A stretch of DNA of 64,000 nucleotides. Origin: Minisyncoccota bacterium (lineage in GTDB: Bacteria; Patescibacteriota; Minisyncoccia; Moranbacterales; UBA2206). A model generated the notes under the pieces. It made no database searches and was not told where the DNA came from. It worked only from the letters and a program-made list of their open reading frames with translations. Numbering within the stretch: the first letter of the stretch is position 1; each line of letters opens with the position of its first letter. Where the stretch lies: NCBI GenBank assembly GCA_031291955.1, contig JARLIA010000005.1, positions 74,034-138,033 of the forward strand, given 5' to 3'. The position numbers and the translations under genes are program-made. This document shows, in pieces, positions 12,666 to 58,071 of this stretch.

Positions 12666-12668
12666 ACA

Positions 12669-12740
12669 AGTTGAAAGTTAAAAAGTAAAAGGTAAAAGTT
12701 CTATTGCCTTTATTTTTAACTTTTATCTTTTATCTTTTAA
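12669..12740. repeat. word-stutter imperfect palindrome (GTAAAAG words / CTTTTAT words)
   Basis: Left arm GTTAAAAAGTAAAAGGTAAAAGTT. Right arm AACTTTTATCTTTTATCTTTTAAC. Sits between guaA and the amidohydrolase gene. Confidence 0.7.
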
Positions 12741-12748
12741 CTAACCTT

Positions 12749-17457: not shown

Positions 17458-17506
17458 GATTTAATTATAGCACAAGTCGTGGAACGCAAAACACGAAAGC
17501 GAAAAC

Positions 17507-17534
17507 TTGACGAGGATGGCGGTAGTGTTATAAT
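17507..17534 (+). promoter_or_regulatory. sigma-70-type promoter (TTGACG, 16-nt spacer, TGT-TATAAT extended -10)
   Basis: Direct reading. Positioned to drive the 17554 ORF and uvrB. Confidence 0.65.
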
Positions 17535-27407: not shown

Positions 27408-30221
27408 ATGCCCACTCAAAAATCTTCTCCTAAAAATACTTTCTCACTGAAGGATAAAATCGTCATCCGTGGCGCGCGGGTGAATAATTTGAAGAACATC
27501 GACGTGGACATTCCGCGGGATAAATTGGTCGTAGTGACAGGTCTTTCCGGGTCGGGGAAATCTTCTTTGGCTTTTGACGTGGTCTACGCCGAAGGCAATC
27601 GGCGGTATCTGGAAGGCATGTCGAGCTACGCCCGGCAGTTTTTGGATGTTTCGGCTAAACCGGACGTGGACAAAATAGAGAATTTGAGCCCGACCATCTC
27701 AATTGATCAAAAAAGCTTGAGTCGTTCACCTCGCTCGACGGTCGGGACGCTCACGGAAATTTACGATTATTTGCGAGTGCTCTACGCCAAAGTGGGAACG
27801 CCCTATTGTCCTCATTGTCTCTTGCCGATGGGGCGCAAAAAGAACCAGGAAATTTTGGAGGAAATTTTGGTTTTGCCGGAAAATACCCAAGTGGCGGTCC
27901 TGGCTCGGATAAAAAATGAAGGTCAGAGTGTTAAGGATATTCTCAAAAACATCAGTCAGCTTGGTTATGCCCGGGCGCGGGTTGGCGGTAAAATCGTCTT
28001 GATTGCCGACGCCTTGCTTTTTCCGGAAGAAAACTTGAGCGGCAACGTCGAAATCGTGGTTGACCGGATCAATCTCAAGAAAAAAAATCCCGATCACGAA
28101 CGGATGTTGGATTCTATTGAGACTGCTTTTAAATTGGGGAAAGGTTTTATGGCGGTCGCAATCGATAATGGTGAGAGCCGGATTTATAATCAAAATTTTG
28201 TTTGCAGCAACTGCTATTTCAAAATTTCGGAAATCACGCCCAAGAATTTTTCTTTCAACAGTCCCGAAGGCGCCTGCGAACATTGCGCGGGAATGGGTAC
28301 TATCCAGGAAGTGGACGAGGATCTGATCATTCCTAACAGAAATCTCACTTTGGCCGAAGGAGCTATTATGCCGCTCGCCAAGTCCGGCGGCCGGGCTGGG
28401 TATCTCGATACTCTCACCAAGATCGGCGAGAAAGCGGGTTTTTCCGTGAATGAACCGGCGCGGAACATTTCCAAGGAAAATTTGAAAGTTATTTTTCATG
28501 GTTTTGGTGTGCCTGGTACTCCTGGTTATTTTGAGGGAGTGGTGCCGATGATTCGAAAAAAATATACCGAAGCGGCCACTCAGACGGCCCGGACCGACAT
28601 CGAAAAATATATGCTGGAAAAAGATTGTCCCGAGTGTGGAGGCAAGCGTTTGAAAAAAGAATATTTATCCGTCTTGATGAGCGGGAAATCGATCGACGAT
28701 TTGGTCCGGATGGATATCGATACTCTCATTTTATTTTTAGAAAATTTACGGACTGCCGATTTGAGTGCCGCCAAAGCGGAAATCGTGGCGCCATTGGCAA
28801 AAGAAATGATCGCCAAAGCCAAGGCGCTCAAGAACGTCGGCTTGGAATATCTGTCACTTTCCCGCCGGGCCGATTCCATTTCCGGCGGCGAAGGTCAGCG
28901 CATCCGGCTCGCAACTCAAATTGGATCGGAACTTTCCGGTATTATCTATGTTCTGGACGAACCGTCTATCGGTCTCCATTCCCGAGACAATGAAAAGTTG
29001 ATCGACACGATGGAAAAGCTGAAAGAGAACGGCAATTCTCTGATCGTGGTCGAGCATGACAAAGACATTATCGAGTGCGCCGATTGGGTGATCGACATGG
29101 GTCCCGGGGCAGGGGAGTTCGGCGGGGAAGTTATCTTTTCCGGTTCGGTGAAAAAAATGGAGAGCGTCGCGACATCCACTGCCAAGTTCCTTTCCGGCCG
29201 GGAAAAAGTAACGGTTAAGAAGAAACCGCGAACGGCATCGAAGAACTTTTTGGAAATCCTGGGTGCCGCAGAACACAATTTGAAAAATATCGACGTCCGG
29301 ATTCCACTCGGCCGTTTTGTTGCCGTCTCGGGCGTGTCCGGTTCGGGGAAATCCACTTTGGTAACCGACATTCTGGCTCGAGAGCTGGCCCGGCATTTTT
29401 GGAAGGCTAAGAAAAATCCCGGAAAGCATGATAAAATCACTGGTCTTAACCGCTTGGATAAAGTGATTAATATCGATCAATCGCCGATCGGCCGGACGCC
29501 GCGTTCCAATGCCGCCACCTACACCGGTGTCTTTTCACTTATTCGGGAACTTTTCTCCGCCACCGAAGAGGCGAAAAAACGGGGCTACGATGCCAGTCGC
29601 TTCAGTTTTAATGTCCGGGGCGGCCGTTGCGAAGATTGCCAAGGCGACGGAACAAAAAAGATCGAGATGCATCTTTTGCCGGATATGTATGTCAAATGCG
29701 AAACTTGCCAGGGAACGCGCTATAACGCCAAGACGCTTGATATTGAATATCAGGGTGCTACCGTCGCCCAGGTGCTGGATATGAGTGTTTCCTACGCGCT
29801 TCGCTTTTTCCATAAATCGCCGCTTATCGCGGCTAAACTGAAAACGCTGGAAGAAGTCGGCCTGGGCTACATCAAACTGGGACAGAGCGCCACAAATCTT
29901 TCCGGCGGAGAAGCGCAGCGGATAAAATTGGCTACCGAGCTCGCCCGGAAATCGACCGGCAAGACTTTGTATATTTTAGATGAACCGACCATCGGGTTGC
30001 ACTTTGAAGATGTGCGGAAATTGCTTCAGGTGCTGGACGCGCTGGTCGAAAAAGGCAACACTGTTCTTGTGGTGGAACATAATTTGGACGTCATCAAGAA
30101 CGCCGACTGGGTGATTGATCTCGGGCCGGAAGGCGGAAACGGGGGCGGCGAAATTGTTTACGCCGGCGAACCGAAGGGGCTGAAGAAAGCGAAGAGGAGT
30201 TGGACAGGAAAATATCTGTAA
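27408..30221 (+). CDS. uvrA: excinuclease ABC subunit A, second paralog (937 aa, no obvious insertions)
   Basis: Same domain order as 23015..26062: [23 protein letters not shown] signatures and zinc modules. Confidence 0.93.
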
Positions 30222-30360
30222 AAAATTTTCAATTTTCAATTTTCAATTTACAATCAATTTTCAATGATTCAATTTTCAATTCAGAAGACGATGCGGACTT
30301 GAAAATTGATAATTATTTGAGTTGATCATTCATTGATGATTGATTATTGTAAATTGATAA
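30222..30360. repeat. AT-rich word-stutter imperfect palindrome (TTTTCAA words), copy 1
   Basis: TTTTCAATTTTCAATTTTCAATTT at 30226-30249 is identical to 56742-56765. The right half carries complementary TTGA-type words (AAAATTGATAATT...). Confidence 0.8.
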
Positions 30361-30363
30361 TTG

Positions 30364-31326
30364 ATGACCAATGGATTATCAAAAAAAATTCTCGCTACTA
30401 TTATTTATTACGATATTTTAGATTATCCGCTCACTTCCTTTGAAGTCTGGAAGTATCTTCTGGCAGTGAACGGTGAGCAGGAATCAGTGAATAATAAAAA
30501 GGAGAAAATGAGTTTGGCTGAGGTCATGAAAGAGTTGGAAAGTGAAGACTTGCAAAAACATACTGAGGAATATCGCGGATTCTATTTTTTAAAAGGAAGA
30601 AGAGATCTTGTTGCCCAAAGACTGGAGCGGAACAAAATTTCCGAGCGGAAGCTTAAAAAAATACAGCAGACGGTTTTTTGGCTGCGAATGGCGCCGTTTG
30701 TCCGGATGGCGGCGGTCACGGGACGAGTGGCCATGAAGAACGCCACTAGAAAAAGCGATCTGGATCTTCTGATCGCGCTTAAAAACAATCGCATTTTTAC
30801 CGGGCGACTGCTGGTTACGCTTCTGGTGCATGCTTTGGGTCGGCGGCGTCATGGAAGCAAAATGACTGATCGGATCTGCCTCAACTATTTTATTACCGAT
30901 GGTTCGCTTGAAATCGGATCGCACGATATTTTTTCCGCTCACGAATATTCTTTCACCGTGCCGGTCTTTGGCGGCGAAGTTTTTCAGGAGTTTCAAAAAG
31001 AGAACAGCTGGATCGCGGAACATAAACCCGCTTTCGCGCCGGACGTGGTTTTGGGGATAAAAATTTTGGAAGATACTTCTTGGGTTAGGGCGGTCAGGGA
31101 GTTTGGGGAAAAAATATTCAACTCTGACAAACTGGAGGCGCGCCTCAAAAAATGGCAGATGGACCGGATTGTCGCTGACCCGCGGACTTATCAAAAAGGG
31201 AGCGGGGTGACGGCTGGTAGCGACGCGTTGGTTTTTCTGCCCGATCCGCAGGGACCGCGGGTTTATGAAAAATATCGTGAGAGGGTTGACGCTTTGGCGG
31301 AATCAGCTACAATATATAGTGGTTAG
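30364..31326 (+). CDS. hypothetical protein with nucleotidyltransferase-fold-like core
   Basis: GRVAMKNATRKSDLDLLI resembles the G-x-x...D-x-D NTase motif. ATG at 30364 preferred over the TTG at 30361. Confidence 0.5.
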   Translation: MTNGLSKKILATIIYYDILDYPLTSFEVWKYLLAVNGEQESVNNKKEKMSLAEVMKELESEDLQKHTEEYRGFYFLKGRRDLVAQRLERNKISERKLKKIQQTVFWLRMAPFVRMAAVTGRVAMKNATRKSDLDLLIALKNNRIFTGRLLVTLLVHALGRRRHGSKMTDRICLNYFITDGSLEIGSHDIFSAHEYSFTVPVFGGEVFQEFQKENSWIAEHKPAFAPDVVLGIKILEDTSWVRAVREFGEKIFNSDKLEARLKKWQMDRIVADPRTYQKGSGVTAGSDALVFLPDPQGPRVYEKYRERVDALAESATIYSG

Positions 31327-31354: not shown

Positions 31355-31428
31355 CATGTAAACATATTAACATTTAAACATATTAACATGTTAAAAAAGT
31401 CTTTTGTTAACATGCTAATATGCTAACA
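31355..31428. repeat. TTAACAT-word repeat block, copy a
   Basis: TTAACATTTAAACAT at 31367-31381 is identical to 44326-44340. Confidence 0.75.
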
Positions 31429-31435
31429 GGCGAAC

Positions 31436-33073
31436 ATGAGTAAAATAATCAAGTACGACGAAGAAGCCCGGGAAAAAATCAAGGCCGGCATCGATGCTGT
31501 AGCCGACGCGGTAAAAATCACGCTTGGGCCGCGAGGACGGAATGTTCTTTTGGATAAGGGTTTTGGAACGCCGATTGTCACCAATGACGGCGTTTCTATA
31601 GCCAAGGAAATCGAACTGGAAGACAAGTTTGAGAATATGGGAGCGGAACTTATCAAAGAAGTAGCCAATAAGACCAATGATGTGGCTGGTGACGGAACAA
31701 CAACTGCGACGGTCCTTACCCAAGCTATTATCGCGGAAGGTCTGAAACTGATGGCGGCCGGTATGAATCCAATTATGGTACGCCAGGGAATCGAAGAAGC
31801 CAAAAATGAAATAATAAAAGAACTCAAGAATAATTCCAAGGCTGTCTCCGGGCGTGAAGAGATTGCACAGGTAGCCACCATCTCGGCCGAAAATCCAGAA
31901 ATGGGTAAAATGATTGCCGACGTGATGGCTGAGACCGGACGGGACGGCGTCATTACTGTTGAAGAATCACAGACCTTCGGGTTGTCCAGGGAAATCGTAG
32001 AGGGGACCAGTTTTGACAAAGGCTACATTTCTCACTATATGATGACCGACAGCGAATCTTTGAAAGCGGAATTGAAAGATCCGTATATCATCATCACTGA
32101 CAAGAAAATTTCCAGCATTCAGGACATCCTGCCGCTTCTGGAAAAGATCGCGGCCTCCGGGAAAAAGGAAATTGTCATCATTGCCGATGACGTGGAAGGG
32201 GAGGCGCTGACGACCTTGGTGTTGAATAAATTGCGAGGTATTTTGAATGTTTTAGCGGTCAAAGCCCCCGAATTCGGCGACACCAAAAAGGAAATGTTGG
32301 AAGATATTGCTATTCTCACCGGCGGGAAAGTAATTACTGAAGAGCGCGGAATGAAAATTGAAAACGCCACACTCTCTGACCTTGGCCAAGCGACTAAAGT
32401 TATTGCTACAAAGGACTTGACCACTGTTGTCAGCGGAAAAGGCAAGAAGAAAGAAATTGAAGCGCGTATCTTGCAACTCAAAACTCGGATCGAAAAATCG
32501 GACAGCAAGTATGACAAGGAAAAACTGCAAAAGCGTTTGGCGAAAATTTCCGGCGGCGTAGCGGTCATTAAAGTCGGGGCGGCCACCGAAACAGAACTGA
32601 CTTATATGAAACACAAAATGGAAGACGCGCTGGCAGCGACGCGCGCGGCTTACGCCGAAGGGGTGGTGGCCGGCGGCGGGACGGCTCTTTTCAAAGCGGC
32701 GGTCGCGGTCGCCAGCAAAATGGAAAACAGCCGGAAAAGCGACGAATACAAAGCTGGCTTTGCCATCCTGGTGAGAGCTTTGGAAGAACCGCTTCGCCAG
32801 ATTGCCAAAAATGGCGGGAAAAAAGATCCGGGCGTAGTGGCCAATGAAGTTTCTAAAAATAAAGGCAAGAACTATGGCTACAATGCTCGAGAAGATCAAT
32901 ATGTTGAAGATATGATAAAGGCTGGTATTATTGATCCGCTGAAAGTGACGCGGACGGCGCTTGAAAACGCGGTGAGCGTGGCAGCTATTCTACTCACCAC
33001 CGAAGCAGCTGTGGCCGAAAAGCCGGCGGAAAAACACGAGTCAGGCATGCCATCGATGCCGATGGGAATGTAA
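31436..33073 (+). CDS. groL: chaperonin GroEL
   Basis: Full-length Cpn60 (DGTTTATVL, VAGGGTAL, Met/Gly-rich tail MPSMPMGM). Confidence 0.96.
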   Translation: MSKIIKYDEEAREKIKAGIDAVADAVKITLGPRGRNVLLDKGFGTPIVTNDGVSIAKEIELEDKFENMGAELIKEVANKTNDVAGDGTTTATVLTQAIIAEGLKLMAAGMNPIMVRQGIEEAKNEIIKELKNNSKAVSGREEIAQVATISAENPEMGKMIADVMAETGRDGVITVEESQTFGLSREIVEGTSFDKGYISHYMMTDSESLKAELKDPYIIITDKKISSIQDILPLLEKIAASGKKEIVIIADDVEGEALTTLVLNKLRGILNVLAVKAPEFGDTKKEMLEDIAILTGGKVITEERGMKIENATLSDLGQATKVIATKDLTTVVSGKGKKKEIEARILQLKTRIEKSDSKYDKEKLQKRLAKISGGVAVIKVGAATETELTYMKHKMEDALAATRAAYAEGVVAGGGTALFKAAVAVASKMENSRKSDEYKAGFAILVRALEEPLRQIAKNGGKKDPGVVANEVSKNKGKNYGYNAREDQYVEDMIKAGIIDPLKVTRTALENAVSVAAILLTTEAAVAEKPAEKHESGMPSMPMGM

Positions 33074-37503: not shown

Positions 37504-39270
37504 ATGCGAATCAGCAATACGCAACTTAGGGATTTTATCAAAGACTCCTCCCTGGTCAAGGATGACGAGCTGGAGGCGTCTTTTGCGGAAGCCGAGAGGG
37601 ACAAGAAGAAGTTGGGGGATGTAATGCTTGAGAAAAAACTGGTTGACGGAATCCAACTAAGGAAACTTTACGCGTATATTTTAGGCGTGCCTTACGTGGA
37701 AATTTCCAAGGAAGTCATTCCGCGTGAAATTTTGCAGATCATTCCCGAACCAATCGCTAAAAAATACAAAATCGTGGCTTTTGAAAAAAGCGGCCATGAA
37801 TTGAAAGTGGCCATGCTTAGCCCGGACGATATCCAGACAATTGACTTTATTCGCAAAAAAACCGGCCTCCGGATCGTTTCCTGTTTGACGTCGGAAGAAA
37901 GCATTGAAACGGTGCTTAAGCAATACAGCAAAAGCTTGAAGGCGGAATTTGGAGATATTATAAGCAAAAACGCGGAAGAAATTTCCGAAGCAGAAGATGG
38001 GGAAGATGAACAGGATTCGGAAGATTTGGAGAAAGTGGCCCAGGGACTTCCCATTATTCGGATTGTTGATACACTCATAAAACACGCCATTTTGCAAAAC
38101 GCCAGCGATATCCACATTGAGCCGGACGAAAAAGAAGTGCGGGTCCGGTATCGCATCGACGGGATTTTGCACGAAGCCATGATTCTTCCCAAGCAAGTGC
38201 GCGACGGGATCATTGCCCGCATTAAGGTGCTTTCCAATTTGAAGTTGGACGAGCATCGCGTGCCGCAAGACGGCCGATTCAAAATTGAGCAGGATGGTCT
38301 CAAAATTTCTTTTCGGGTCAGTATTTTGCCAATTTTCGATGGAGAGAAAATTGTGATGCGGTTGCTCAACGAATCATCCAAGGGATTGACACTGGAAGCG
38401 ATGGGACTCTCTGGAGATGGCTTGGAGGCTATTCATCGCGAGATCAAACGTCCCAATGGCATGATTTTGGTAACTGGACCGACCGGTTCAGGCAAAACCA
38501 CCACCTTGTATACGATTATGGATATTCTCAACACGCCCGACGTCAACATCAGCACTGTGGAGGACCCGGTGGAATATCGGATGCCGCGCATTAATCAGAC
38601 CCAGGTCCACCCGCAAGTTGGTCTCACTTTTGCTGCGGGCTTGCGTTCGCTGTTGCGGCAGGACCCGGATATCATCATGGTTGGCGAAATCCGTGACAAA
38701 GAGACGATGGAAATGGCTGTTCAAGCAGCCATGACCGGACACTTGGTGCTTTCAACGCTCCACACCAACAGCGCCGCCGGAACTTTGCCGCGGCTTATTG
38801 ATATGGGAGCCGAACCGTTTTTGGTGGCTTCGACTGCCAACGTGATTATGGCTCAGCGTCTGGTGCGGAAACTTTGCCACGATTGCAAGAAAGAATATGT
38901 GATGAACGACAAAGAACTCAAGACGCTCAAAGACAATTACGATATGGATGACATTCTGGAAAAGATAAAAGGAAACGATTTGCTGGTCGGCAAGCTGAAA
39001 GCCAAGGATGGTTGGGAGGACGTCAAGTTTTATCAACCGGTCGGCTGTGAGCAATGTAATCACGAGGGTTATCATGGCCGGAGCGGAATTTTCGAAGTAC
39101 TGCCGGTGGATGACGATATCAAAAAAATGATCACTCAAAAAGCCACCTCGGAAGAATTGGAGACAAAGGCCAAGGAAAAGGGGATGCTGACCATGATCGA
39201 TGACGGTTTTATTAAAGCCATTCTGGGAGTAACATCAGTGGAGGAAATTTTGCGAGTGACGAAAGAATAG
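37504..39270 (+). CDS. pilB: type IV pilus assembly ATPase PilB (GspE family)
   Basis: Walker A GPTGSGKTTT, Asp and His boxes, C-terminal tetracysteine CHDC...CEQC. Confidence 0.93.
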   Translation: MRISNTQLRDFIKDSSLVKDDELEASFAEAERDKKKLGDVMLEKKLVDGIQLRKLYAYILGVPYVEISKEVIPREILQIIPEPIAKKYKIVAFEKSGHELKVAMLSPDDIQTIDFIRKKTGLRIVSCLTSEESIETVLKQYSKSLKAEFGDIISKNAEEISEAEDGEDEQDSEDLEKVAQGLPIIRIVDTLIKHAILQNASDIHIEPDEKEVRVRYRIDGILHEAMILPKQVRDGIIARIKVLSNLKLDEHRVPQDGRFKIEQDGLKISFRVSILPIFDGEKIVMRLLNESSKGLTLEAMGLSGDGLEAIHREIKRPNGMILVTGPTGSGKTTTLYTIMDILNTPDVNISTVEDPVEYRMPRINQTQVHPQVGLTFAAGLRSLLRQDPDIIMVGEIRDKETMEMAVQAAMTGHLVLSTLHTNSAAGTLPRLIDMGAEPFLVASTANVIMAQRLVRKLCHDCKKEYVMNDKELKTLKDNYDMDDILEKIKGNDLLVGKLKAKDGWEDVKFYQPVGCEQCNHEGYHGRSGIFEVLPVDDDIKKMITQKATSEELETKAKEKGMLTMIDDGFIKAILGVTSVEEILRVTKE

Positions 39271-39348
39271 TCAGAACCACTGATTAACACTGATTATGCT
39301 GATTACACGTGAATTAATTTTTTTAATAAGAAATATAAACAACTTAGA

Positions 39349-40569
39349 ATGAAAGTTTTTTATTCGGCTAAAAGTTTCTCCGGCGAAACCAAGAGCGGAG
39401 AAATGGAAATCAAGGACGAGCGGGATCTGGCCATGCAGCTGCGCGCTGATGGTTATATTTTGACGTCCTTTAAAGAACTGAAAAGCAATAAGGAAAAAAC
39501 GGGGCGGATAAAATTCATGAACCGCTTTATTCGAATTTCGCTCACGGACAAACTCATGTTTACCCGTAATTTGAGCGTTATGGTTTCTTCGGGCTTGCCG
39601 CTTTCCAAGGCGTTGAAAAATATCGCCCTGCAGACCAAGAAAAAAAAGTTCGCCTCCATCCTTAATAAAGTATATGATGAAATCCAAGCCGGCAATTCCT
39701 TGGCCGACGGATTGAAGGAATATCCGGGAATTTTCAACGATCTTTTCGTCAATATGATCCGGGTCGGTGAAGCTAGCGGCAACTTGGACGAAGTGTTGGA
39801 CATTCTGGCCATTCAACTGGAAAAAGAACATGATCTGATCAGCAAGATCAAAGGCGCCCTGACTTATCCGGCCGTTATTCTTGTGGCCATGTTTGGAATA
39901 GGAATCATTATGTTGACCTATGTTCTGCCAAAAATTCTTGGGGTCTTTGCGGGGATGAATGTAGAGTTGCCAGAATCGACGAAGGTCGTGATAGCCATCA
40001 GCGATTTCTTGCGCTTCCATAGCATTTTGGCGATTTCTCTTTTTGTGGGCGTGATAGTTTTTCTGAAGTTCTATTTCATGACCGAGTCTGGCAAAAAAAC
40101 CTTGGGATTTCTGGCTATAAACACTCCGCTAGTCAGCAATATGGTCATCAAAATCAATTGCGCCAGATTCGCCAGGATCTACAGCTCACTTCTCAAATCT
40201 GGCGTGTCGGTGGTTGAATCGCTGCGCATTATTTCCGACACTCTGAATAATTATTATTATCATAACGCTTTTTTGGATGGCATGGACAAAGTGCAAAAAG
40301 GAATTCCGCTTTCCGATGTGATCGCCAAAAATACGAAAATCTTTCCCGTTCTGGTGTCTCAGATGATCCAAGTGGGGGAGGAAACCGGCAAGACCGACAT
40401 GGTGCTTTTGAAGCTGGCTGAATTTTATGAAGCGGAAGTTGATCAGCTGTCCAAAAACATGTCTTCCATCATTGAACCGGTGCTGATGATCGTTATCGGT
40501 TCAGCGGTTGGCTTTTTTGCTGTTTCCATGCTTGAGCCGATGTATTCCATCATGAACCAGATACAATAA
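39349..40569 (+). CDS. pilC: type IV pilus platform protein PilC (GspF family)
   Basis: Two T2SSF repeats and three TM segments. Typical length of 406 aa. Confidence 0.9.
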   Translation: MKVFYSAKSFSGETKSGEMEIKDERDLAMQLRADGYILTSFKELKSNKEKTGRIKFMNRFIRISLTDKLMFTRNLSVMVSSGLPLSKALKNIALQTKKKKFASILNKVYDEIQAGNSLADGLKEYPGIFNDLFVNMIRVGEASGNLDEVLDILAIQLEKEHDLISKIKGALTYPAVILVAMFGIGIIMLTYVLPKILGVFAGMNVELPESTKVVIAISDFLRFHSILAISLFVGVIVFLKFYFMTESGKKTLGFLAINTPLVSNMVIKINCARFARIYSSLLKSGVSVVESLRIISDTLNNYYYHNAFLDGMDKVQKGIPLSDVIAKNTKIFPVLVSQMIQVGEETGKTDMVLLKLAEFYEAEVDQLSKNMSSIIEPVLMIVIGSAVGFFAVSMLEPMYSIMNQIQ

Positions 40570-40570
40570 T

Positions 40571-40667
40571 CGCAAAACGCAAAACGTGGAACGTAAAACG
40601 AAAACAAAATGAGGAAAAAAATTAAAAAAATAAACAGCGCTCCACGCTCCACGCTCCACGCCCCACG
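40571..40667 (+). repeat. CGCAAAAC/GTGGAACG word palindrome that encloses the start codon of the next gene
   Basis: Left arm CGCAAAACGCAAAACGTGGAACGTAAAACG (40571-40600). Right arm GCGCTCCACGCTCCACGCTCCACGCCCCACG (40637-40667). The ATG at 40609 lies in the A-rich centre. Confidence 0.75.
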
Positions 40668-42012
40668 ATTTTCGGGGTTTACTCTCATCGAAGCCATGAC
40701 CTTGCTTTTTCTTTTTACCGTTATTGTTCTGACTTTTTATCAAGTATTAACGAAAGGAACGGGGTATATGGATTATTCCAAAAACCGCCTGGGGGCTTTG
40801 GCGGTGGCCAACGAGAAAATGGAAATCGCCCGGAACCTGGATTATGCCGATGTCGGCGCGACAGGAGAAGTTGCAAGTGGCAACATTCCCCAAGACGAAG
40901 ACGTGACCCAGAATGGCCATACTTATCACGTCCACACATTGGTGACTTATGTGGACGATCCGTTTGACGGAAAACTGGGCGGATCGCCCAATGATATGAT
41001 ACCCGAAGATTATAAATTGGTGGAAATTACTGTTTCCTGGAACACTGGCGGAGCGAATGCCGGAAGCGTTTCGCTCTCGTCCCGTTTCGTGCCGAATGGA
41101 TTGGAAATAGCCGATCCGAACACCGGCATTTTGTCGATCAATGTTATCGGGAGCGATGGTTCGGCTGTGACTGGTGCGGCCGTTCATATCGTCAATTCCA
41201 ATGTCGGCATCAATGAAACGCTCCAAACTGACGCGAGCGGAAACGCGATGCTGGTGGGCGCTCCGGCCATCCAAGATTATCAGATCATGGTTTCAAAATC
41301 TGGCTATGAAACCGTGGCAACTTTGCCGCCCTATCCGACTACGCCCTACAATCCAACCTATCCGTATCAGTCGGTGATAGCCGGTTCGCTCAACATAGCC
41401 AATATTATCGAAGATAAAACGTCCAATCTCACCGTCTCAACCACGGACCAATCCGGAAGTCCCGTGCCAGGTGTCGCTTTCAAGCTCTCCGGCGGACGCG
41501 TGCTGGGAACGCAGGCAATACCGCCGTTCGCGTCGGTCTATGATACTGATAATGTCAGCAACCAGACCGGGACGAACGGAACAAAGGAGTATGATGCCAT
41601 CAGTCCGGGCCAGTATACTTTTTCGCTCTCCGGTCCAGTGAGCGGCTACACGCTGGTTGGTATCGAGCCGACCTCGCCGTTCCCGCTGGCGCCAGGACAG
41701 AGTCTTAGTTTGAATGTGGGGCTGGCCAGTACGTCTGTCACCTCTGCTTTGATCAGCGTGTTCGACAGTGTGACTAACAAGGCTCTATCTGGTGCCAGTG
41801 TGGAATTGTCTAGTGCTTCCGGCTATGACAAAACGGTGACCACGGACAGTAATGGTACGGCTTATTTTCCCGTGACTGCCGGAGACGCGACATTTATCGC
41901 TGGCAACTATACGCTTAAAGTCAGCGCCAGCAGCTACCAAGCTGACACGGAGACAGTCATGGTGAGCAATGGCACACTTTTAAACAAATCGGTTTCACTG
42001 GTTGGCAATTAA
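40609..42012 (+). CDS. large prepilin-type protein (minor pilin / pilus-associated, 467 aa)
   Basis: G|FTLIEAMTLLFLFTVIV prepilin signal after an unusually long leader. Body of repeated beta-sandwich-like segments. Confidence 0.8.
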   Translation: MRKKIKKINSAPRSTLHAPRFSGFTLIEAMTLLFLFTVIVLTFYQVLTKGTGYMDYSKNRLGALAVANEKMEIARNLDYADVGATGEVASGNIPQDEDVTQNGHTYHVHTLVTYVDDPFDGKLGGSPNDMIPEDYKLVEITVSWNTGGANAGSVSLSSRFVPNGLEIADPNTGILSINVIGSDGSAVTGAAVHIVNSNVGINETLQTDASGNAMLVGAPAIQDYQIMVSKSGYETVATLPPYPTTPYNPTYPYQSVIAGSLNIANIIEDKTSNLTVSTTDQSGSPVPGVAFKLSGGRVLGTQAIPPFASVYDTDNVSNQTGTNGTKEYDAISPGQYTFSLSGPVSGYTLVGIEPTSPFPLAPGQSLSLNVGLASTSVTSALISVFDSVTNKALSGASVELSSASGYDKTVTTDSNGTAYFPVTAGDATFIAGNYTLKVSASSYQADTETVMVSNGTLLNKSVSLVGN

Positions 42013-42014
42013 AT

Positions 42015-42653
42015 ATGATTATTAACCGAAAAAAAATATTTCAAAACCGTTCCGGTTTGACGCTTGTGGAAATGATGATGGCCATTCTGATTTTTGTCAT
42101 TGGCATGGTCGGTTTCACGTTGCTTTTTTCCCGGACCTGGCAGATAAATTCCTACACGCTCCAGTTGGGCCAGGCTTCTCTCCAGGCTTCTCAAGGGATA
42201 AACAAATTAACCGATTATATCCGGGAAGTCAGCCAGGCGGACAGCGGCGCTTATCCGATTGTGTCGGCCAATAGCAATGATCTGGTGGTTTATTCCGATT
42301 ACAATAATGACGGCGCAGTAGAGCGGCTTCATTTTTATAAATCCGGCTCGAATATTCTTATGGGCGTTACCAATCCGACAACAACTCTGCCAAAAACCTA
42401 TCCGGTTGGCGATCAGCAGACATTTACGCTGGTATCCAATGTCGTCAATAGCGGCGTTCAACCGATCTTTTCTTATTACAACAATAATTATCCCGGCGAT
42501 ACGACCAATAATCCATTGGCCGTCCCCGCTGCGGTGGCCAATATCAGGCTGGTGGAAGTGCACTTGGAAATAAACACCAATCCTGCCCGGATGGCAAATA
42601 ATGTCGAAATGCAAACATTTGTGGAAATGCGGAATATGAATGACTATGATTGA
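42015..42653 (+). CDS. prepilin-type minor pilin (212 aa)
   Basis: SG|LTLVEMMMAILIFVIGMVG signal. Confidence 0.8.
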   Translation: MIINRKKIFQNRSGLTLVEMMMAILIFVIGMVGFTLLFSRTWQINSYTLQLGQASLQASQGINKLTDYIREVSQADSGAYPIVSANSNDLVVYSDYNNDGAVERLHFYKSGSNILMGVTNPTTTLPKTYPVGDQQTFTLVSNVVNSGVQPIFSYYNNNYPGDTTNNPLAVPAAVANIRLVEVHLEINTNPARMANNVEMQTFVEMRNMNDYD

Positions 42654-42667
42654 TCATATAGCGCACA

Positions 42668-44311
42668 ATGCGAAATCCGAATATGAAGAAAAAAAATAAC
42701 ACAATAAAAAACGTTCCACGTTTTACGCTACGCGTTTCGCGACGCGAAGGATCGGCTTTGGCATACGCTTTAATTATTATGTTGGCTGTGATGATTATTC
42801 TGACGTCCCTTATCAGTTATATCGTGAGCCAAATGAACTACAGTTCCAACCAGGCGGAGAGGCAGGAAGCTTTCGAAGTGGCGGAAGCGGGCGTCTCTTG
42901 GTATAACTGGTATCTGGCCCACCAAACCGACGGCAAAACGGCCCAGCAGATCAATAACTTTTGGCAGGGAACAAGTCCCAGTCCTTTAGGCATTGGTTCT
43001 CTCTATCAGCAAACCTTTACCGCTCCGGACGGACAGACGCTGGGAAGTTACAGTCTGGATGTTCAGCGCCCCGTTCTTGGCTCGACGATCGTGATAGTTA
43101 AATCGACCGGTTGGACCAATCGGGCGCCGAATGAAAAGCGGACGATCCAAGTTCGGTTTCGTCGTCCTTCCTGGAGTGAATATGCTGTTCTGGCTAACGA
43201 TGTGATGAGGTTCGGACAAGGAACGGTGATCAATGGAAAGATCCAATCCAATTATGGTATTCGTATGGATGGAACGGCTAATAACGTCGTCTCCAGTTCA
43301 GTGGCTTCCTATGACGATCCCGACCACAGCGGCAAAGTGGAGTATGGGGTGCATACGCATCTCATTCCGCCGGCAGATACAAGCCTGGCCGATCCTTATC
43401 TTAATAACGAAGCCCCGGCCAACAACGGTCTCATCCCGCCGGATCGGCCGGATGTTTTCAAGGCCGGCCGTAAATTTCCAGTGCCGACAGTGAGCTTTAC
43501 CGGCGTAACTTCCGATTTGGCTTATATGAAAACTCAAGCGCAATCCGGTAGCGGGAAATATTTTGACAATACCGGCAAAGGGCGTCAAATAATCTTGAAT
43601 TCGAACGGTACCTATACGGTTTATACTGTCAATTCTTATGACGCGCCGCCCTCTCCCTTGCCTTCTTCAACTTCCAACACCAATTCCATCACTGGTTACG
43701 CGGGTACCAAAAATTCCAACGGAACCGGCTCGGCTTGCACGGCGTTAGTAACAATGAACGGGCCAAACACGCAATGCAAAAACAAAACAACCGGCTCTAC
43801 TTGCTATTGTTCTTCAGCGACTTATACTATTCCCAATAATGGCATTATTTTCGTAGAGGACAATATTTGGCTGGAGGGCACAATCAATAAAGAAAAGGTG
43901 ACGATTGTGGCCGCCAATATGGGCAGCGGAACGCAGGCCAATATTTTTGTCGGCAACAACAATATTCTTTATACCAATTTTGACGGGCAAGATATTCTGG
44001 GCGTGATTGCTCAAGATGACGTGGAAGTGATCAAAAACAGTCAGACCACTCTGACTTTGGACGGTGCCTTCATCGCTCAGAACGGCCGGGTGGGGCGCGA
44101 TAACTACGGCACTTCTGACTATAAAAATTCCATCACTGTCAATGGCTCCATCGCGACCAATCAGCGTTATGGTTTTTCTTGGACAGATGGATTTAATAGC
44201 TGGGGATATGACGATCGCATCCTGAACTTCGACAACAATTTGATCTATTATCCGCCGCCCTATTTTCCGACCGGTACCGAGTATTCCATAGATCTATGGA
44301 AAGAGCTGTGA
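42668..44311 (+). CDS. PilX-like N-terminal-domain pilus protein (547 aa)
   Basis: REGSALAYALIIMLAVMIILTSL matches the PilX_N pattern. The start may instead be the ATG at 42683. Confidence 0.7.
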   Translation: MRNPNMKKKNNTIKNVPRFTLRVSRREGSALAYALIIMLAVMIILTSLISYIVSQMNYSSNQAERQEAFEVAEAGVSWYNWYLAHQTDGKTAQQINNFWQGTSPSPLGIGSLYQQTFTAPDGQTLGSYSLDVQRPVLGSTIVIVKSTGWTNRAPNEKRTIQVRFRRPSWSEYAVLANDVMRFGQGTVINGKIQSNYGIRMDGTANNVVSSSVASYDDPDHSGKVEYGVHTHLIPPADTSLADPYLNNEAPANNGLIPPDRPDVFKAGRKFPVPTVSFTGVTSDLAYMKTQAQSGSGKYFDNTGKGRQIILNSNGTYTVYTVNSYDAPPSPLPSSTSNTNSITGYAGTKNSNGTGSACTALVTMNGPNTQCKNKTTGSTCYCSSATYTIPNNGIIFVEDNIWLEGTINKEKVTIVAANMGSGTQANIFVGNNNILYTNFDGQDILGVIAQDDVEVIKNSQTTLTLDGAFIAQNGRVGRDNYGTSDYKNSITVNGSIATNQRYGFSWTDGFNSWGYDDRILNFDNNLIYYPPPYFPTGTEYSIDLWKEL

Positions 44312-44313
44312 GT

Positions 44314-44409
44314 CATATTAGCATGTTAACATTTAAACATGTTAACAAGAAATTTTTTCAATAAAAATGTTAATATGCTAAAATAATAATGTGCTAAAAT
44401 GTTAAAATG
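44314..44409. repeat. TTAACAT-word repeat block, copy b
   Basis: Shares TTAACATTTAAACAT with 31367-31381. Shares AATGTTAATATGCT (44366-44379) with 47920-47933. Confidence 0.75.
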
Positions 44410-50699: not shown

Positions 50700-51854
50700 T
50701 TACTTCAACTCCAAATTGGCGTCAGTTTCCAATTTTTTCCAGTTAGCTTTGCATATTTTTTTATCCGGCGCCAGCTTGTGCCGGTAATAGGCGGCGGCAG
50801 CGATCATGGCGGCGTTGTCTAAAGAGTAGCATGTATCAGGCATGATGTATAAAGTATTTTTTAATCCTTCTTTTATTTTTTCGCCGAGCTGGTGGCGTAA
50901 TTCGGAATTGGCGCTGACGCCGCCGGCCAAGAGGATTGTTTTAGGATTATATTTTTTGGCGGCGGAAATTGTTTTGGAAACCAGAACGTCACAGACTGCT
51001 TGCTGGAATTCGCGGCAAACTTCGGCCACAAATTTTTTATCCCCCAGCAATTTTTCATTTTTCTTCACCAAGTATAGCACGGCCGTCTTCAGTCCGGAAA
51101 AGGAAAAATTAAAATTCTTGGAGTTTATCATGGGCCGGGGAAGGGATATCGCATATCGCATATCGCGTAACGTGGAACCTGTATTTATTTTGCGCTCTGC
51201 GTTTTGCGCTTCATGCTCCACGCTTTGCGTTGCGCGTTTTGCGATTTCTGGTCCGCCGGGATAGCTCAAATTTAAGATGCGAGCCACTTTGTCAAAAGCT
51301 TCGCCGGCCGCGTCGTCCAGCGTCTGGCCGATGATTTCATAAACCAAATGTTTTTTCATCAGCACCAACTGCGTATGCCCGCCGGAAACGACGAGGCAGA
51401 GAATGGGGAATTGAATGGAAGAATTTTGAATTTGTTTGGGATTTGAGATTTTGGATTTAGTGCTTACGCGAATTTTGTCTTCGATAAAATTCGCGTAGAT
51501 GTGTCCTTCGATGTGATGGATGCCGATGAGCGGTGTGCGCCAAAGATAGGATAAAGTCTTGGCGGCTGTCGTTCCGACCAGAAGGGCGGGAATCAACCCT
51601 GGGCCGTTGGTGACAGCGATGAGATCGATGTCGCGCGAGGTTATGCCAGCTTCTTTCAGCGCGGCTTCGATTACGGGCGTAATATTTTTGAGATGTTCCC
51701 GGGCAGCCAGGTTCGGCACCACGCCGCCCCATTTGGCGTGGAGTTTGACTTGGGAAGAGACAATGCTCGAAAGCACCGTTAGATTATCTTTTTCTCCCGC
51801 CAAAACGGCCGCCGCCGTTTCATCGCAGGAAGTTTCAAGGCCGAGGATAAGCAT
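50700..51854 (-). CDS. tsaD: tRNA N6-adenosine threonylcarbamoyltransferase TsaD (384 aa, two in-frame insertions)
   Basis: GLETSCDETAAAV, HHIEGHIYA, VSGGHTQL, LAGGVSAN. Confidence 0.93.
   Translation of the reverse strand: MLILGLETSCDETAAAVLAGEKDNLTVLSSIVSSQVKLHAKWGGVVPNLAAREHLKNITPVIEAALKEAGITSRDIDLIAVTNGPGLIPALLVGTTAAKTLSYLWRTPLIGIHHIEGHIYANFIEDKIRVSTKSKISNPKQIQNSSIQFPILCLVVSGGHTQLVLMKKHLVYEIIGQTLDDAAGEAFDKVARILNLSYPGGPEIAKRATQSVEHEAQNAERKINTGSTLRDMRYAISLPRPMINSKNFNFSFSGLKTAVLYLVKKNEKLLGDKKFVAEVCREFQQAVCDVLVSKTISAAKKYNPKTILLAGGVSANSELRHQLGEKIKEGLKNTLYIMPDTCYSLDNAAMIAAAAYYRHKLAPDKKICKANWKKLETDANLELK
51146..51246 (-). repeat. in-frame word-palindrome module inside tsaD (CGCAAAAC/GTGGA words)
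   Basis: The coding strand reads ATCGCAAAACGCGCAACGCAAAGCGTGGAGC...GGTTCCACGTTACGCGATATGCGATATGC. It encodes TQSVEHEAQNAERKINTGSTLRDMRYAIS between conserved PGGPEIAK and LPRPM. Confidence 0.8.
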
Positions 51855-55488: not shown

Positions 55489-56739
55489 ATGAATCGACCG
55501 AAGCTCCTTATGTTCGGATGGGAATTTCCGCCGCATAACAGCGGCGGCTTAGGTGTAGCCTGTTTTGGTCTTTCCCGGGCTTTGTCCCGTCTGAACACTG
55601 AAATAATTTTCGTCCTGCCGCAAAAGATTCCGACCACAGCTGATTTTATGCGGGTAGTTTTTCCGGAAGATTATTTGAGCGAAGAGATTATCCGTCAGAG
55701 CCGCTTAACTGGAGATTTAATGTTGCACGCATATGTTACTTCCCAAGAATATCAAACCCAACTTGAGAAAGTCTCCTTGCTAAAAGGTGCGGTAACCTAC
55801 GCCAGTGATCTTTACGGCGAAGTGCGCCGCTACGGGGTGTTGGCTCGGGCGATCGCCAAAAAAGAAACTTTTGATGTTATTCATGCGCATGACTGGCTCT
55901 CTTTTCCTGCTGGCATCGAAGCTAAAAGAGTGAGTGGAAAACCGCTGATTGTCCATGTCCATGCTACAGAATTTGATCGCTGTGGCGGACCTGACATCAA
56001 TCGGCAGGTATTTGAAATCGAAAAAGAAGGTTTGGAGAAAGCGGATGGTATCGTGGCGATCAGTGAATTTGTGAAAAACAATATTATCCGAAATTACGGA
56101 GCTGATCCAAAAAAGATCCGGGTCATTCATAATGGCGTGGACGAAGAAGATTATGCGACTGATCCGGGCGCCCACGAAGGCTTCGAAGCGCTCAAGGCGG
56201 CCGGTAAAAAAATAGTTCTTTTCTTGGGACGGATTACTATTCAAAAAGGACCGGACTATTTTATTGAGGCAGCCAAAATTGTTCTCAACTACAATCCCGA
56301 TGTCATTTTTTTGGTGGCCGGCTCGGGCGACATGGAGCGGCAGATGATTCGGAAAGCCGCCGAACTGGGGATCGGAGACAAAGTTATTTTCACTGGATTT
56401 TTGCGCGGCAAGGAATGGCTCCAGGTTTTCCGCTCCGCCGATCTTTTCGTCATGCCATCCGTTTCCGAACCGTTTGGCCTTGTGGCGCTGGAATCGATGG
56501 TCAATGGTACGCCGGTTTTGATTTCCAAACAATCCGGAGTGTCGGAAGTGGCGCGAAATGTCCTCAAAACTGATTTTTGGGACACGGAAGAAATGGCTAA
56601 TAAGATTCTAGCAGTCTTGGGCAGCGAAGGCTTGCCGGCCGTGCTTAAAAAAGAAGGTTTTTCTGAAGCGCGCGAGATTAGCTGGAAAGAGGCGGCCAAA
56701 AAATGTATCGAATTTTATAACCAATTGGCACAGACATAA
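55489..56739 (+). CDS. glycogen-synthase-like glycosyltransferase (GT4/GT5 type)
   Basis: FPPHNSGGLGVA N-terminal motif, HAHDW, and C-terminal PSVSEPFGLVALESM. Start set to ATG 55489. Confidence 0.8.
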   Translation: MNRPKLLMFGWEFPPHNSGGLGVACFGLSRALSRLNTEIIFVLPQKIPTTADFMRVVFPEDYLSEEIIRQSRLTGDLMLHAYVTSQEYQTQLEKVSLLKGAVTYASDLYGEVRRYGVLARAIAKKETFDVIHAHDWLSFPAGIEAKRVSGKPLIVHVHATEFDRCGGPDINRQVFEIEKEGLEKADGIVAISEFVKNNIIRNYGADPKKIRVIHNGVDEEDYATDPGAHEGFEALKAAGKKIVLFLGRITIQKGPDYFIEAAKIVLNYNPDVIFLVAGSGDMERQMIRKAAELGIGDKVIFTGFLRGKEWLQVFRSADLFVMPSVSEPFGLVALESMVNGTPVLISKQSGVSEVARNVLKTDFWDTEEMANKILAVLGSEGLPAVLKKEGFSEAREISWKEAAKKCIEFYNQLAQT

Positions 56740-56862
56740 AATTTTCAATTTTCAATTTTCAATTTCTAAACAATTTCCAATGTATGAATTGATAAATTTT
56801 AAAATTGGTAAATTAAATAATTGTTTGAAAATTAAAAATTAGAAATTGAAAATTTAAATAAT
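56740..56862. repeat. AT-rich word-stutter imperfect palindrome (TTTTCAA words), copy 2
   Basis: 56742-56765 is identical to 30226-30249. The right half carries AAATTGAAAATT, the reverse complement of AATTTTCAATTT. Confidence 0.8.
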
Positions 56863-58071
56863 ATGCCTTCCATCTGTTTCTATTTCCAGGTCCATCAACC
56901 CATGCGGATTAAAAAATACCGCTTTTTTGACATCGGTCAGGATCATAATTATTTCAACGACCATAGCGACACCAACTTGAATAATGTCAAAATACTGAAA
57001 AAAGTGTCGGATAAATGTTATCTGCCAGCCAATCGGATCCTGCTGGAAATGATCAGGCAGCATCCGGAATTTAAGATTTCCTTTTCTTTTTCTGGCGTTT
57101 TTTTGGAACAGTTGGAAATGTTTATGCCGGAAGTTTTAGCATCCTTTCAAGAATTGGTGGCCACTGGCAATGTGGAAATTCTGGACGAAACCTACTATCA
57201 TTCTTTGTCTTTTCTTTATTCGCCGGAGGAATTCAAACATCAAGTGGGAAAGCACAAAAAAATGATCCGAAGACTGTTCGGTCTCACTCCGCGGGCTTTT
57301 CGGAATACCGAACTTATTTATAACAATGACCTGGCTCGAGCAGTGGAAGAAATGGGCTACAAAGTTATTCTGGCCGAAGGAGCCGACCACATCCTGGGCT
57401 GGCGCAGTCCCAATTTTCTCTATCGGCCGCAAGGCTTGGATAAAATTAAATTATTAGTTAAAAATTACAAACTGTCAGACGACATCGCCTTTCGTTTTTC
57501 GGAGCGTAGCTGGAAGGAACATCCGCTGACAGCCGGAAAATTCGCCCATTGGGTGGCTGAGCATAACGGCAATGGAGAAGTCATCAATCTCTTTATGGAT
57601 TATGAAACTTTCGGCGAGCACCAGTGGGCCGACACCGGTATTTTTGAATTTCTGCGCCATTTGCCCGCCGAATTGGCCCAAAAATCTGATATCGATTTTG
57701 TCACCCCGAGCGAGGCGGCCGCGCGCTACCGCCCGGTAGGTGAGTTGGACGCGCCGCATTTTGTTTCCTGGGCCGACACCGAGCGCGATCTCTCCGCCTG
57801 GCTCTCCAATGATATGCAACGGGAAGCGATGGAAAAAATCTATGCCCTGGAAGAGGAAATTAAAAATATTAATGACGATCGTTTGCTCGAAGACTGGCGG
57901 CGACTCCAGACTTCCGACCATTTCTATTACATGTGCACCAAATGGTGGAACGACGGGGACGTCCATAAATATTTCAATCCGTACGATTCTCCCTATGATG
58001 CTTTCATCGCTTTCATAAACGCCCTAAATGATGTAAAATTAAGAAGTCAGAACTTGGTCGCGAAAAAATAA
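56863..58071 (+). CDS. glycoside hydrolase family 57 enzyme (alpha-amylase / branching-enzyme-like)
   Basis: N-terminus ICFYFQVHQPMRIK and overall GH57-like catalytic region (ETFGEHQW). Confidence 0.75.
   Translation: MPSICFYFQVHQPMRIKKYRFFDIGQDHNYFNDHSDTNLNNVKILKKVSDKCYLPANRILLEMIRQHPEFKISFSFSGVFLEQLEMFMPEVLASFQELVATGNVEILDETYYHSLSFLYSPEEFKHQVGKHKKMIRRLFGLTPRAFRNTELIYNNDLARAVEEMGYKVILAEGADHILGWRSPNFLYRPQGLDKIKLLVKNYKLSDDIAFRFSERSWKEHPLTAGKFAHWVAEHNGNGEVINLFMDYETFGEHQWADTGIFEFLRHLPAELAQKSDIDFVTPSEAAARYRPVGELDAPHFVSWADTERDLSAWLSNDMQREAMEKIYALEEEIKNINDDRLLEDWRRLQTSDHFYYMCTKWWNDGDVHKYFNPYDSPYDAFIAFINALNDVKLRSQNLVAKK

Follow-up and report, generated by a model that had tools for sequence, protein, structure and literature searches.

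Rickettsia palindromic elements (RPEs) were reportedly described by Ogata et al. in 2000. They have been summarised as palindromes translated in frame inside housekeeping genes (PMC10969869). Heptanucleotide tandem repeats are known from Beggiatoaceae (TAACTGA; PMC4679880), from Xanthomonas and Nostoc (GGGAATC; PMC4692102) and as the cyanobacterial STRR; heptameric repeats are in excess in many bacteria, and the idea of polymerase-footprint slippage has been quoted for them (PMC4692102). Template switching has been described to create and maintain perfect stems and to yield compensatory multi-base changes, spacer inversion and the replacement of neighbouring amino acids (PMC8794818, PMC8604942), and the tandem repeats of Borgs create disordered regions (PMC9879509). 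Literature searches on Patescibacteria (the Candidate Phyla Radiation, CPR), covering heptamer repeats, simple-sequence repeats and insertions of hairpins, found nothing on point. Here we analyse a 64-kb stretch of a Minisyncoccota genome (contig JARLIA010000005.1, positions 74,034 to 138,033; hereafter the window), in which the tsaD gene carries two in-frame inserts combining 7-nucleotide (nt) repeats with palindromes and the uvrA gene carries a similar tract. We put at roughly 0.6 the probability that these inserts are products of local slippage and template switching, filtered for reading frame and translated as low-confidence loops, and are not a mobile element.

In-frame inserts in TsaD

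The tsaD coding sequence (50700-51854, minus strand) is an open reading frame (ORF) of 384 residues, as against about 337 in a typical TsaD. Solved TsaD structures match it at E = 1e-77, the catalytic motifs are intact in alignments and its PF00814 homologs number in the thousands, the best being a partial protein, 99% identical, of a metagenome-assembled genome (MAG) labelled "Candidatus Pacebacteria". An earlier note made from the letters of the window had quoted two tracts in this gene and read both as insertions. The quoted sequences were found where it had placed them, on the coding (minus) strand, and both insertions proved to be in frame and absent from solved TsaD structures. Its further claim, that nothing separates the flanks in canonical TsaD, was too strong: E. 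coli has 15 residues across PGGP-FPRPM and 6 across ML-FPF, so the net gain is about 20 residues at one site (site B) and about 18 at the other (site A), less than the whole quoted intervals. An independent NCBI MAG contig matches the window at 99.93% over 6.8 kb, both inserts included; the inserts are therefore not an assembly artefact.

The site A insert (51417-51476, minus strand) comprises residues 127-146 (KIRVSTKSKISNPKQIQNSS), with a net gain of 18 residues. HMMER opens an 18-residue gap after ANFIED against the solved E. coli and Salmonella proteins, and the ortholog alignment agrees. At its upstream edge stands a palindrome (51465-51497, minus strand; TACGCGAATTTTATC-GAA-GACAAAATTCGCGTA) with a 15-nt stem, 93% complementary, and a 3-nt loop, the hairpin folding at z = -5.8 relative to shuffles. 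The 5' arm consists of the conserved codons for YANFI, and the insert opens with DKIRV, which is encoded by the 3' arm. Beyond it lies a degenerate heptamer array (51431-51467, minus strand; coding AAATCCA AAATCTC AAATCCC AAACAAA TTCAAAA), which was detected as a lag-7 tract and, at 51435-51458, by TRF with a period of 7.

At site B the insert (51145-51248, minus strand; approximately residues 203-237, net gain about 20) is a 104-nt imperfect palindrome whose 37-nt arms (51145-51181 and 51212-51248) are 70% complementary. The alignment with solved TsaD is broken here between residues 211 and 238, with 6 residues in the solved chains against 26 in the query. The mRNA strand folds at -36.1 kcal/mol (z = -4.0), a value equalled by none of 200 shuffles. 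Inside the insert lies a perfect heptamer array (51146-51166, minus strand), three copies of ATATCGC (coding GCGATAT) encoding RDMRYAI, which TRF reports at period 7 with 100% match and which also appears as lag-7 tracts. Further degenerate heptamers phased on CG occupy 51189-51248, and matches to a CG-phase pattern fall at 51150 and 51221. The only direct repeat flanking site B is the 6-nt TATCCC.

In an AlphaFold2 model built on a 32-sequence alignment the TsaD core is good (mean predicted local distance difference test score, pLDDT, 79), and pLDDT falls below 50 at residues 125-145 and 224-232. Low confidence at both inserts, together with their absence from solved structures, agrees with the notion that they form disordered loops, disorder itself being only probable.

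Palindromes and the codons beside them

Most orthologs with a site A insert possess a perfect inverted copy of the YANFI codons directly after those codons. In the long form of this palindrome, compared across 15 orthologs, 95% of cells are paired and 6 of the 15 base pairs have changed on both sides; the observed values were reached by none of 500 shuffles, and slid controls were 29-40% paired. Pair 6-28, which includes the third base of the Ala codon, occurs as UA, GC, CG and AU, through the codon combinations GCC/GGC, GCG/CGC, GCT/AGC and GCA/TGC. Which residue (G, R, S or C) stands across the palindrome is determined by the third base of the Ala codon, and the residue following YANFIxDKI is S, G, R or C, encoded by NGC codons, in all 41 of 41 proteins. 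Changes in the Tyr codon are compensated likewise, TAT/ATA giving DKICI and TTC/GAA giving DKISE. A short form centred on the Phe codon (GCCAAC-TTC-GTTGGC and similar) is 84% paired, with 14 double-change cells and 4 of 9 pairs double-changed, in a set of sequences picked partly by the residue after Ile/Val, a choice that favours pairs 4-18 and 5-17 but not 6-16.

YANFI-anchored stems of at least 7 bp were found in 28 of 51 orthologs with an insert and in 4 of 22 without, the chance expectation being below 1%. The palindrome centre varies by lineage: in some the loop is the codon that follows Ile, in others it is the codon for Phe. Firmicutes TsaD has only a 5-6 bp seed, AATTTTAT..ATAAAA, from the NFIEDK codons. 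At site B, palindromes are built on the codons of the conserved xIAxxA helix (CCATTGCCC-tac-GGGCAATGG, GCCATTTCAGC-gact-GCTGAAATGGC and TTGCTGC-ttgg-GCAGCAA). Site A of tsaD has 33 perfect stems of at least 8 bp and site B has 10 (13.5 kb together), against 20 in the other 59 kb. Per 100 kb, perfect hairpins deep within coding sequence number 25 for the CPR loci (tsaD having 31 of the 52), 8.8 for the window and 3.1 for non-CPR loci.

These palindromes bear two marks expected of template switching: one arm copies, as its reverse complement, sequence that already stood next to it, and the arms are homogenised through Watson-Crick changes on both sides, a pattern that selection on structure would also produce. 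Mismatches at site A, read on the sense strand, comprise 2 U-G and at least 6 A-C cells and show no G-U bias. The loops may carry a further mark. GAA in the window faces TTC in a related locus (L005), and TCC faces GGA in another (L022), exact reverse complements in otherwise identical hairpins. Two such pairs among 9 distinct loops, where about 0.6 would be expected by chance, are no more than suggestive of the spacer inversion that accompanies template switching.

Turnover of the inserts between orthologs is high. The earlier note had named ortholog alignment as a check, with conservation across distant orthologs counting against its proposal; neither the TsaD nor the UvrA inserts are conserved at that distance. 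The site A segment (Y...SGGHT) spans 18-72 residues in 73 distinct sequences, and the site B segment (PGGP...PRPM) 15-83 residues among about 70 distinct Patescibacteria orthologs. A relative whose TsaD is 81% identical to that of the window (L001) keeps a homologous site A insert and has wholly different heptamers (AAATCTA) at site B. Another, at 77% identity (L002), has neither the site A insert nor its palindrome, which shows the palindrome to be dispensable. The tsaD reading frame is nevertheless intact in 95 of 95 scorable loci and the inserts are stop-free; TGT in place of TGA within IENCELKIEN is an example of stop avoidance.

Two further parts of tsaD deserve mention. In some lineages a third insertion site in the C-terminal half holds GC-rich perfect palindromes of 15-16 bp (L023, tsaD nt 916-950; L030, nt 990-1026; L031, nt 1068-1104), and the palindrome of L030 and L031 is identical over 37 nt (TGGGAGCTCAACTCCCACAAAGGGAGTTGAGCTCCCA). 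In the window, a period-7 tract (50830-50857, minus strand; a lag-7 tract with TAC every 7 nt) underlies the conserved C-terminal motif NTxYxIPDTxYS, at which L001 has clearer heptamers (about 3970-4005; ATACCAG ATACCAG ATACCCG ATACTGA). This CPR-conserved stretch is 2 residues longer than in E. coli and is possibly an old heptamer array fixed into the protein. The neighbours of tsaD encode an ECF-type sigma factor, a membrane protein, HSP20 and VanW; synteny is kept in relatives, which derive from MAGs of Moranbacteria, Parcubacteria and other Patescibacteria.

Period 7 in uvrA and in spacers

What the earlier note had described as repeated words proved, by TRF and lag analysis, to be degenerate heptanucleotide tandem repeats. 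Under a strict threshold the window has 12 lag-7 tracts, none at lags 4-6, 9 and 10 and one to three at lags 8, 11 and 12. Across 41 loci of 6 kb each from Patescibacteria relatives, the density of lag-7 tracts is 36.5 per 100 kb, with about 1-3 at the other lags from 4 to 13, and here as in the window no other period is enriched; in 14 non-CPR loci (Firmicutes and others) the figure for lag 7 is 5.5 and period 7 is not enriched. Tracts of this type are about ten times denser in intergenic DNA. TRF places period-7 arrays in both tsaD inserts, in uvrA (see below), at 40571-40605, at 40638-40667 and in many intergenic positions besides; those of the window are short, with 3-5 units and 73-100% match. 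The 101 tracts found in 70 distinct tsaD genes use 55 consensus units, of which AATTTCC, AAAATTC and AAAATTG are the commonest, so that no single motif is under selection. As the unit length is not divisible by 3, an array is translated in all three frames, and seven-residue peptide repeats of orthologs (NFQFPIS, KSQIPNP, IENCELKIEN, RYALRDM) are the three-frame readout of heptamers.

Like tsaD, uvrA (23015-26062, plus strand; 1015 residues) is interrupted in frame. It has three inserts relative to solved UvrA, alignment to 3zqj leaving gaps at residues ~144-166, ~262-284 and ~478-497. One of these is the tract that the earlier note had likened to those of tsaD (IRSEIRNTKSE...), and it is indeed missing from solved UvrA and from non-CPR orthologs. 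It comprises four ATCCGAA units followed by AAAATCA-type units (23792-23870, plus strand), encodes IRSEIRNTKSETMSKSKIKNSKQNN, and was recorded by TRF at 23800-23828 and 23836-23860, by lag-7 tracts and by a CG-phase match at 23803. Among CPR UvrA orthologs the insert site differs in length and sequence, and Exiguobacterium and Clostridium have no insert there. A hairpin at the 3' edge of the insert (AAAACAAT/ATTGTTTT, 23862-23883) is present but no better than shuffles (z = +0.4), and we do not use it as evidence.

In one metagenome contig (L134, 4290-4345; ENA ERZ27249449 k141_1661366), uvrA is cut at the variable insert site into ORFs of 270 and 710 residues by a stop-containing, terminator-like palindrome, AAAAATCGGAGCTAAGCTCCGTTGCAACGGAGCTTAGCTCCGATTTTT, with A and T tracts. 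Since a stop-containing palindrome has split a gene in this way, the generating process appears to be blind to the reading frame. In a second contig (L135, 2130-2240) the uvrA ORF ends within an AAATTCT array, after which a terminator and an unrelated gene follow. The UvrA homolog set consists almost entirely of partial ORFs and gives no frequency for split uvrA genes.

Distinct perfect palindromes number 17 in the window, against about 2 expected, and 5 of the 17 lie deep in coding sequence. Unique perfect palindromes with stems of 10-14 bp stand in frame deep within three excision-repair genes: in uvrB at 18352-18375, 18455-18483 and 19209-19232, in uvrA at 23480-23502 and in a UvrC-like ORF at 26451-26482, with peptides such as PSPYKGEG and SSPRGGQKSLPPTAK. 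The uvrB of the window encodes 740 residues, which we take to be well above the usual UvrB length. The UvrC-like ORF (26068-27327) has only 419, UvrC being about 600 residues long, and a truncation, or a split like that of uvrA in L134, is possible.

The claim that the tsaD insert uses the same vocabulary as tracts at 17478, 40571 and 42712 stood in part: CG-phased heptamers are common to them, but exact words are shared only at chance level. Elsewhere in the window, the 10- to 12-mers of the three inserts are repeated at a rate not above that found for 500 random coding segments of 101 nt (sharing at K = 8 was uninformative, chance matches being too many, and K = 10-12 was used instead). The pattern CGN5CGN5CGN5CG, by contrast, has 12 matches in the window against 1.54 expected, a count reached in none of 100 shuffles. 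Ten of the 12 fall in the uvrA insert, the spacer at 40571, 40638-40674, 42712-42741 and tsaD site B. Likewise, that the sequences of spacers occur as translated inserts is right as to kind, namely heptamer arrays and inverted-array hairpins, and not as to the insertion of specific words. Since k-mers are shared at chance, 55 units are in use, the palindromes are unique and their arms are copied from the flanks, the common feature would be a generating process, not a shared or mobile sequence.

Several spacers display this kinship. Between pilC-like and pilin-like genes (assigned through Pfam) lies a CG-phased array (40571-40605, plus strand; CGCAAAA CGCAAAA CGTGGAA CGTAAAA CGAAAAC). A heptamer-like CG-phased tract (17478-17510, plus strand) stands just upstream of a TTGACG...TATAAT promoter-like site; it was read directly and is one base out of register for the strict pattern. 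Two-armed arrays occur at 56740-56858 (no strand; AATTTTC x3 followed by GAAAATT-type units, by TRF), where they form a long hairpin, and in similar pairs at 12674-12739 and 30224-30365 (no strand). These intergenic hairpins are long and periodically bulged (56735-56865, z = -4.2; 12660-12750, z = -4.3; 30220-30368, z = -3.4), and tsaD site B, the counterpart of 56740-56858, shares their architecture of two inverted arrays. The regions 40560-40680 and 42700-42760 fold no better than shuffles. The spacers at 30224-30250 and 56740-56765, each right after a stop codon, have a 28-nt string in common (AAAATTTTCAATTTTCAATTTTCAATTT). Period-8 tandem arrays fill two other spacers (31355-31438 and 44314-44409; CATATAAA / AACATATT and CATGTTAA / AAAATGCT) and also make inverted-array hairpins (z = -1.7 and -2.6), constituting a second, rarer periodicity.

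The tract at 42712, listed by the earlier note as intergenic, instead lies in leader codons at the N-terminus of a pilin-like ORF: its CG-phased heptamers (42712-42741, plus strand) are among the first codons of a PilX_N-containing ORF (42668-44311). An array of four CGCTCCA units (40638-40674, plus strand) is similarly translated, as SAPRSTLHAPR, in the leader of the pilin-like ORF 40609-42012, just before GFTLIE; the ATG at 40609 is the sole in-frame start upstream of GFTLIE. Both ORFs belong to a type IV pilus cluster (37504-44311) and their leader peptides are unusually long (40609-40680 and 42668-42745), the extra residues SAPRSTLHAPR and VPRFTLRVSRRE being encoded by CG-phased heptamers. 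The pilin leader, which is cleaved off, would be another place tolerating such inserts.

Origin of the inserts and comparison with known systems

Under the reading that we favour, replication slippage in a 7-nt register would lay down short tandem heptamer arrays, and template switching, by fold-back copying in a quasi-palindrome, would create, extend and keep perfect the palindromes, one arm of each being the conserved codons that flank a loop. Selection would serve only as a filter, for a permissive surface loop, a kept reading frame and the absence of stop codons. The surviving inserts would be translated as low-complexity loops in which K, N, S, Q and I abound and which would probably be disordered and serve no specific function, and the same process, unfiltered, would fill the intergenic spacers of this Patescibacteria (Paceibacteria/Moranbacteria-type) lineage. 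The palindromes appear to have been made in place, because an imported element could not complement the synonymous sites of its host and covary with them, and the heptamer arrays are most simply explained as slipped-strand products. That slippage and template switching are the enzymatic causes, and that the outcome is neutral, is what we infer.

A number of observations weigh against this account. Covariation, and a perfect 15-bp stem across orthologs of about 60% identity, are equally expected from a selected nucleic-acid structure. The start of the site A insert, DKIxVS[ST]K, is fairly conserved within a subclade. Moreover, tsaD is a strong hotspot, holding 64 of 88 lag-7 tracts and 31 of 52 perfect hairpins deep in coding sequence in loci of which it forms about 20%, a concentration that would not readily be expected if a neutral process acted alone across the genome. 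No polymorphism has been caught in action, and the one very close relative does not differ from the window. The two reverse-complement loop pairs, against about 0.6 by chance, are only suggestive. The search for copies spans 64 kb of the genome, and dispersed copies elsewhere are possible.

The covariation could instead mean that selection maintains the tsaD palindromes, and perhaps also the arrays, as cis-acting nucleic-acid elements, the insert peptide being a by-product. Such an element might be an mRNA hairpin influencing the stability, processing or translation speed of the message for the t6A enzyme, or else a hairpin or cruciform in the DNA to which a protein binds. The 95% pairing over 15 bp in 15 lineages and the NGC codons in 41 of 41 proteins suit such elements, as do retention of the hairpin while downstream arrays turn over and the significance of both hairpins on the mRNA strand (site B, z = -4.0; site A, z = -5.8). 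The hairpin density of tsaD is, additionally, far above that of neighbouring genes, and a cis-element would help to explain the hotspot. We nonetheless consider it unlikely, given that the hairpin is missing from L002 (77% identity) and from some dozen further orthologs, that the palindrome centre moves between lineages, that G-U pairs are not favoured on the sense strand (2 U-G against at least 6 A-C cells), that a terminator-like tail and an Rfam family are both absent and that template switching alone can furnish the same covariation (PMC8794818). Quite unlikely, too, is the broader proposition that Patescibacteria possess a dedicated, sequence-agnostic mechanism, nucleated by hairpins and laying down 7-nt repeats, or that the tsaD palindromes are functional cis-elements regulating the t6A enzyme, or both. 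Such a mechanism may depend on a polymerase or primase of a specialised kind, or on nucleases that process hairpins and flaps having been lost. If either part were true, tsaD would be a programmed hotspot whose loops are written by DNA structure and not by protein function.

A function at the protein level, whereby flexible, positively charged K/N/S-rich loops of TsaD (and UvrA) aid tRNA or DNA binding or replace partner proteins, would accord with the way in which most of the clade's orthologs have inserts in these same loops, always in frame, and with their Lys-, Asn- and Ser-rich composition. Qri7, the partner-independent mitochondrial homolog, aligns unbroken over its full length, which suggests extra residues in these loops. 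This we judge distinctly improbable: neither the sequence nor the length nor even the charge of the loops is conserved, NFQFPIS, IENCELKIEN and the peptides of GC-rich palindromes occupying the same site, the residues are set by DNA complementarity and heptamer phase, some orthologs have no inserts and the AlphaFold2 model is unstructured and of low confidence there. Very little speaks for small mobile palindromic elements, akin to RPEs or miniature inverted-repeat transposable elements, having transposed into genes and spacers. The inserts are palindromic, of about 100 nt, in frame in essential genes and present in spacers as well, a type of GC-rich palindrome, exemplified by CCCTCTCCCG/CGGGAGAGGG, is seen repeatedly, and L030 and L031 have an identical 37-nt palindrome at the third tsaD site. 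Yet no second copy of any insert exists in the 64-kb window (K = 10-12) and every perfect palindrome is unique; a dispersed mobile family is unlikely because the intragenic palindromes all differ and the insert k-mers are not repeated. The arms, furthermore, complement conserved codons of the host gene and track their synonymous changes, there is no convincing target-site duplication beyond the 6-nt TATCCC repeat, and 55 unit types are in use. Barely credible is a role as contingency loci, in which gain or loss of 7-nt units would shift the frame and switch tsaD or uvrA on and off. A unit length that is not a multiple of 3, the three perfect ATATCGC copies and the uvrA ORFs that end in an array or palindrome in two metagenome contigs might be cited in its favour, but the arrays are short (3-5 units) and degenerate, 0 of 95 tsaD loci are frameshifted, uvrA in L134 is split by a stop codon in a palindrome and not by a change in unit number, an independent assembly of the same population is identical and tsaD is unlike the genes that are usually phase-variable.

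Other identities for the inserts are not supported. An intein, intron or bypassed element is improbable, as the inserts are always in frame and stop-free, have no Rfam match and, at 54-60 nt, are too short for an intein. An intrinsic terminator was set aside after a consensus scan made no terminator-like call at either tsaD insert; the consensus scan likewise found no promoter function for the tsaD hairpins. A search for known RNA families in the window returned five tRNAs only.

If slippage and template switching are indeed responsible, the tsaD inserts would provide a natural example of an essential enzyme whose amino-acid sequence is dictated by the self-complementarity of DNA: a synonymous third base in an Ala codon decides between Gly, Arg, Ser and Cys seven positions on, across the palindrome. 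Covariation and parallel substitutions in such lineages need not, then, signify functional RNA or positive selection. The findings add a large uncultivated radiation to the few lineages with an unexplained excess of heptanucleotide repeats, and tsaD offers a tractable, phylogenetically dense locus for testing models of slippage and template switching. In practice, such inserts inflate protein lengths, can split genes (as in uvrA) and can mislead CPR annotation, alignment trimming and structure prediction.

In comparison with described systems, the elements resemble RPEs in being palindromes of about 100-150 nt situated in frame in unrelated housekeeping genes, translated where the fold presumably tolerates them, in occurring between genes as well and in belonging to a reduced-genome lineage. 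RPEs, however, form dispersed families of conserved sequence and peptide and count as mobile, whereas the elements here are unique, have no copy in the window, take their arms from host flanking codons and are periodic at 7 nt. As they are not a dispersed family, they fall outside the RPE class. A second likeness is to the low-complexity inserts of Plasmodium falciparum, which are rich in Asn and Lys, derive from slippage and lie in conserved proteins, and to the repeats of Borgs, whose units within ORFs are described as having lengths divisible by three. In each case fast-evolving, lineage-specific and probably disordered loops are encoded by repeats in otherwise conserved proteins. The unit here is 7 nt, however, so that all three frames are translated and stop-free variants must be selected, and only here is there a palindrome component.

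With STRR-type heptanucleotide repeats the inserts have in common an over-representation of 7-nt units relative to other lengths, a mostly intergenic location, inverted pairs that sometimes form stem-loops and an occasional presence in ORFs. Those repeats are built from a single defined motif or a few of them, and their arrays are often long and perfect, whereas dozens of units are found here, in short degenerate arrays that are coupled to palindromes and in many cases translated in essential genes. Template switching in quasipalindromes accounts, in known cases, for arm homogenisation, compensatory multi-base changes, spacer inversion and replaced amino acids, all without selection (PMC8794818, PMC8604942, PMC7202029). 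Those events are described as sporadic, in rRNA genes, yeast ORFs and E. coli reporter hotspots, whereas here, throughout a large clade, one site has retained a perfect palindrome of 15 bp that goes with an insertion and has heptamer arrays beside it.

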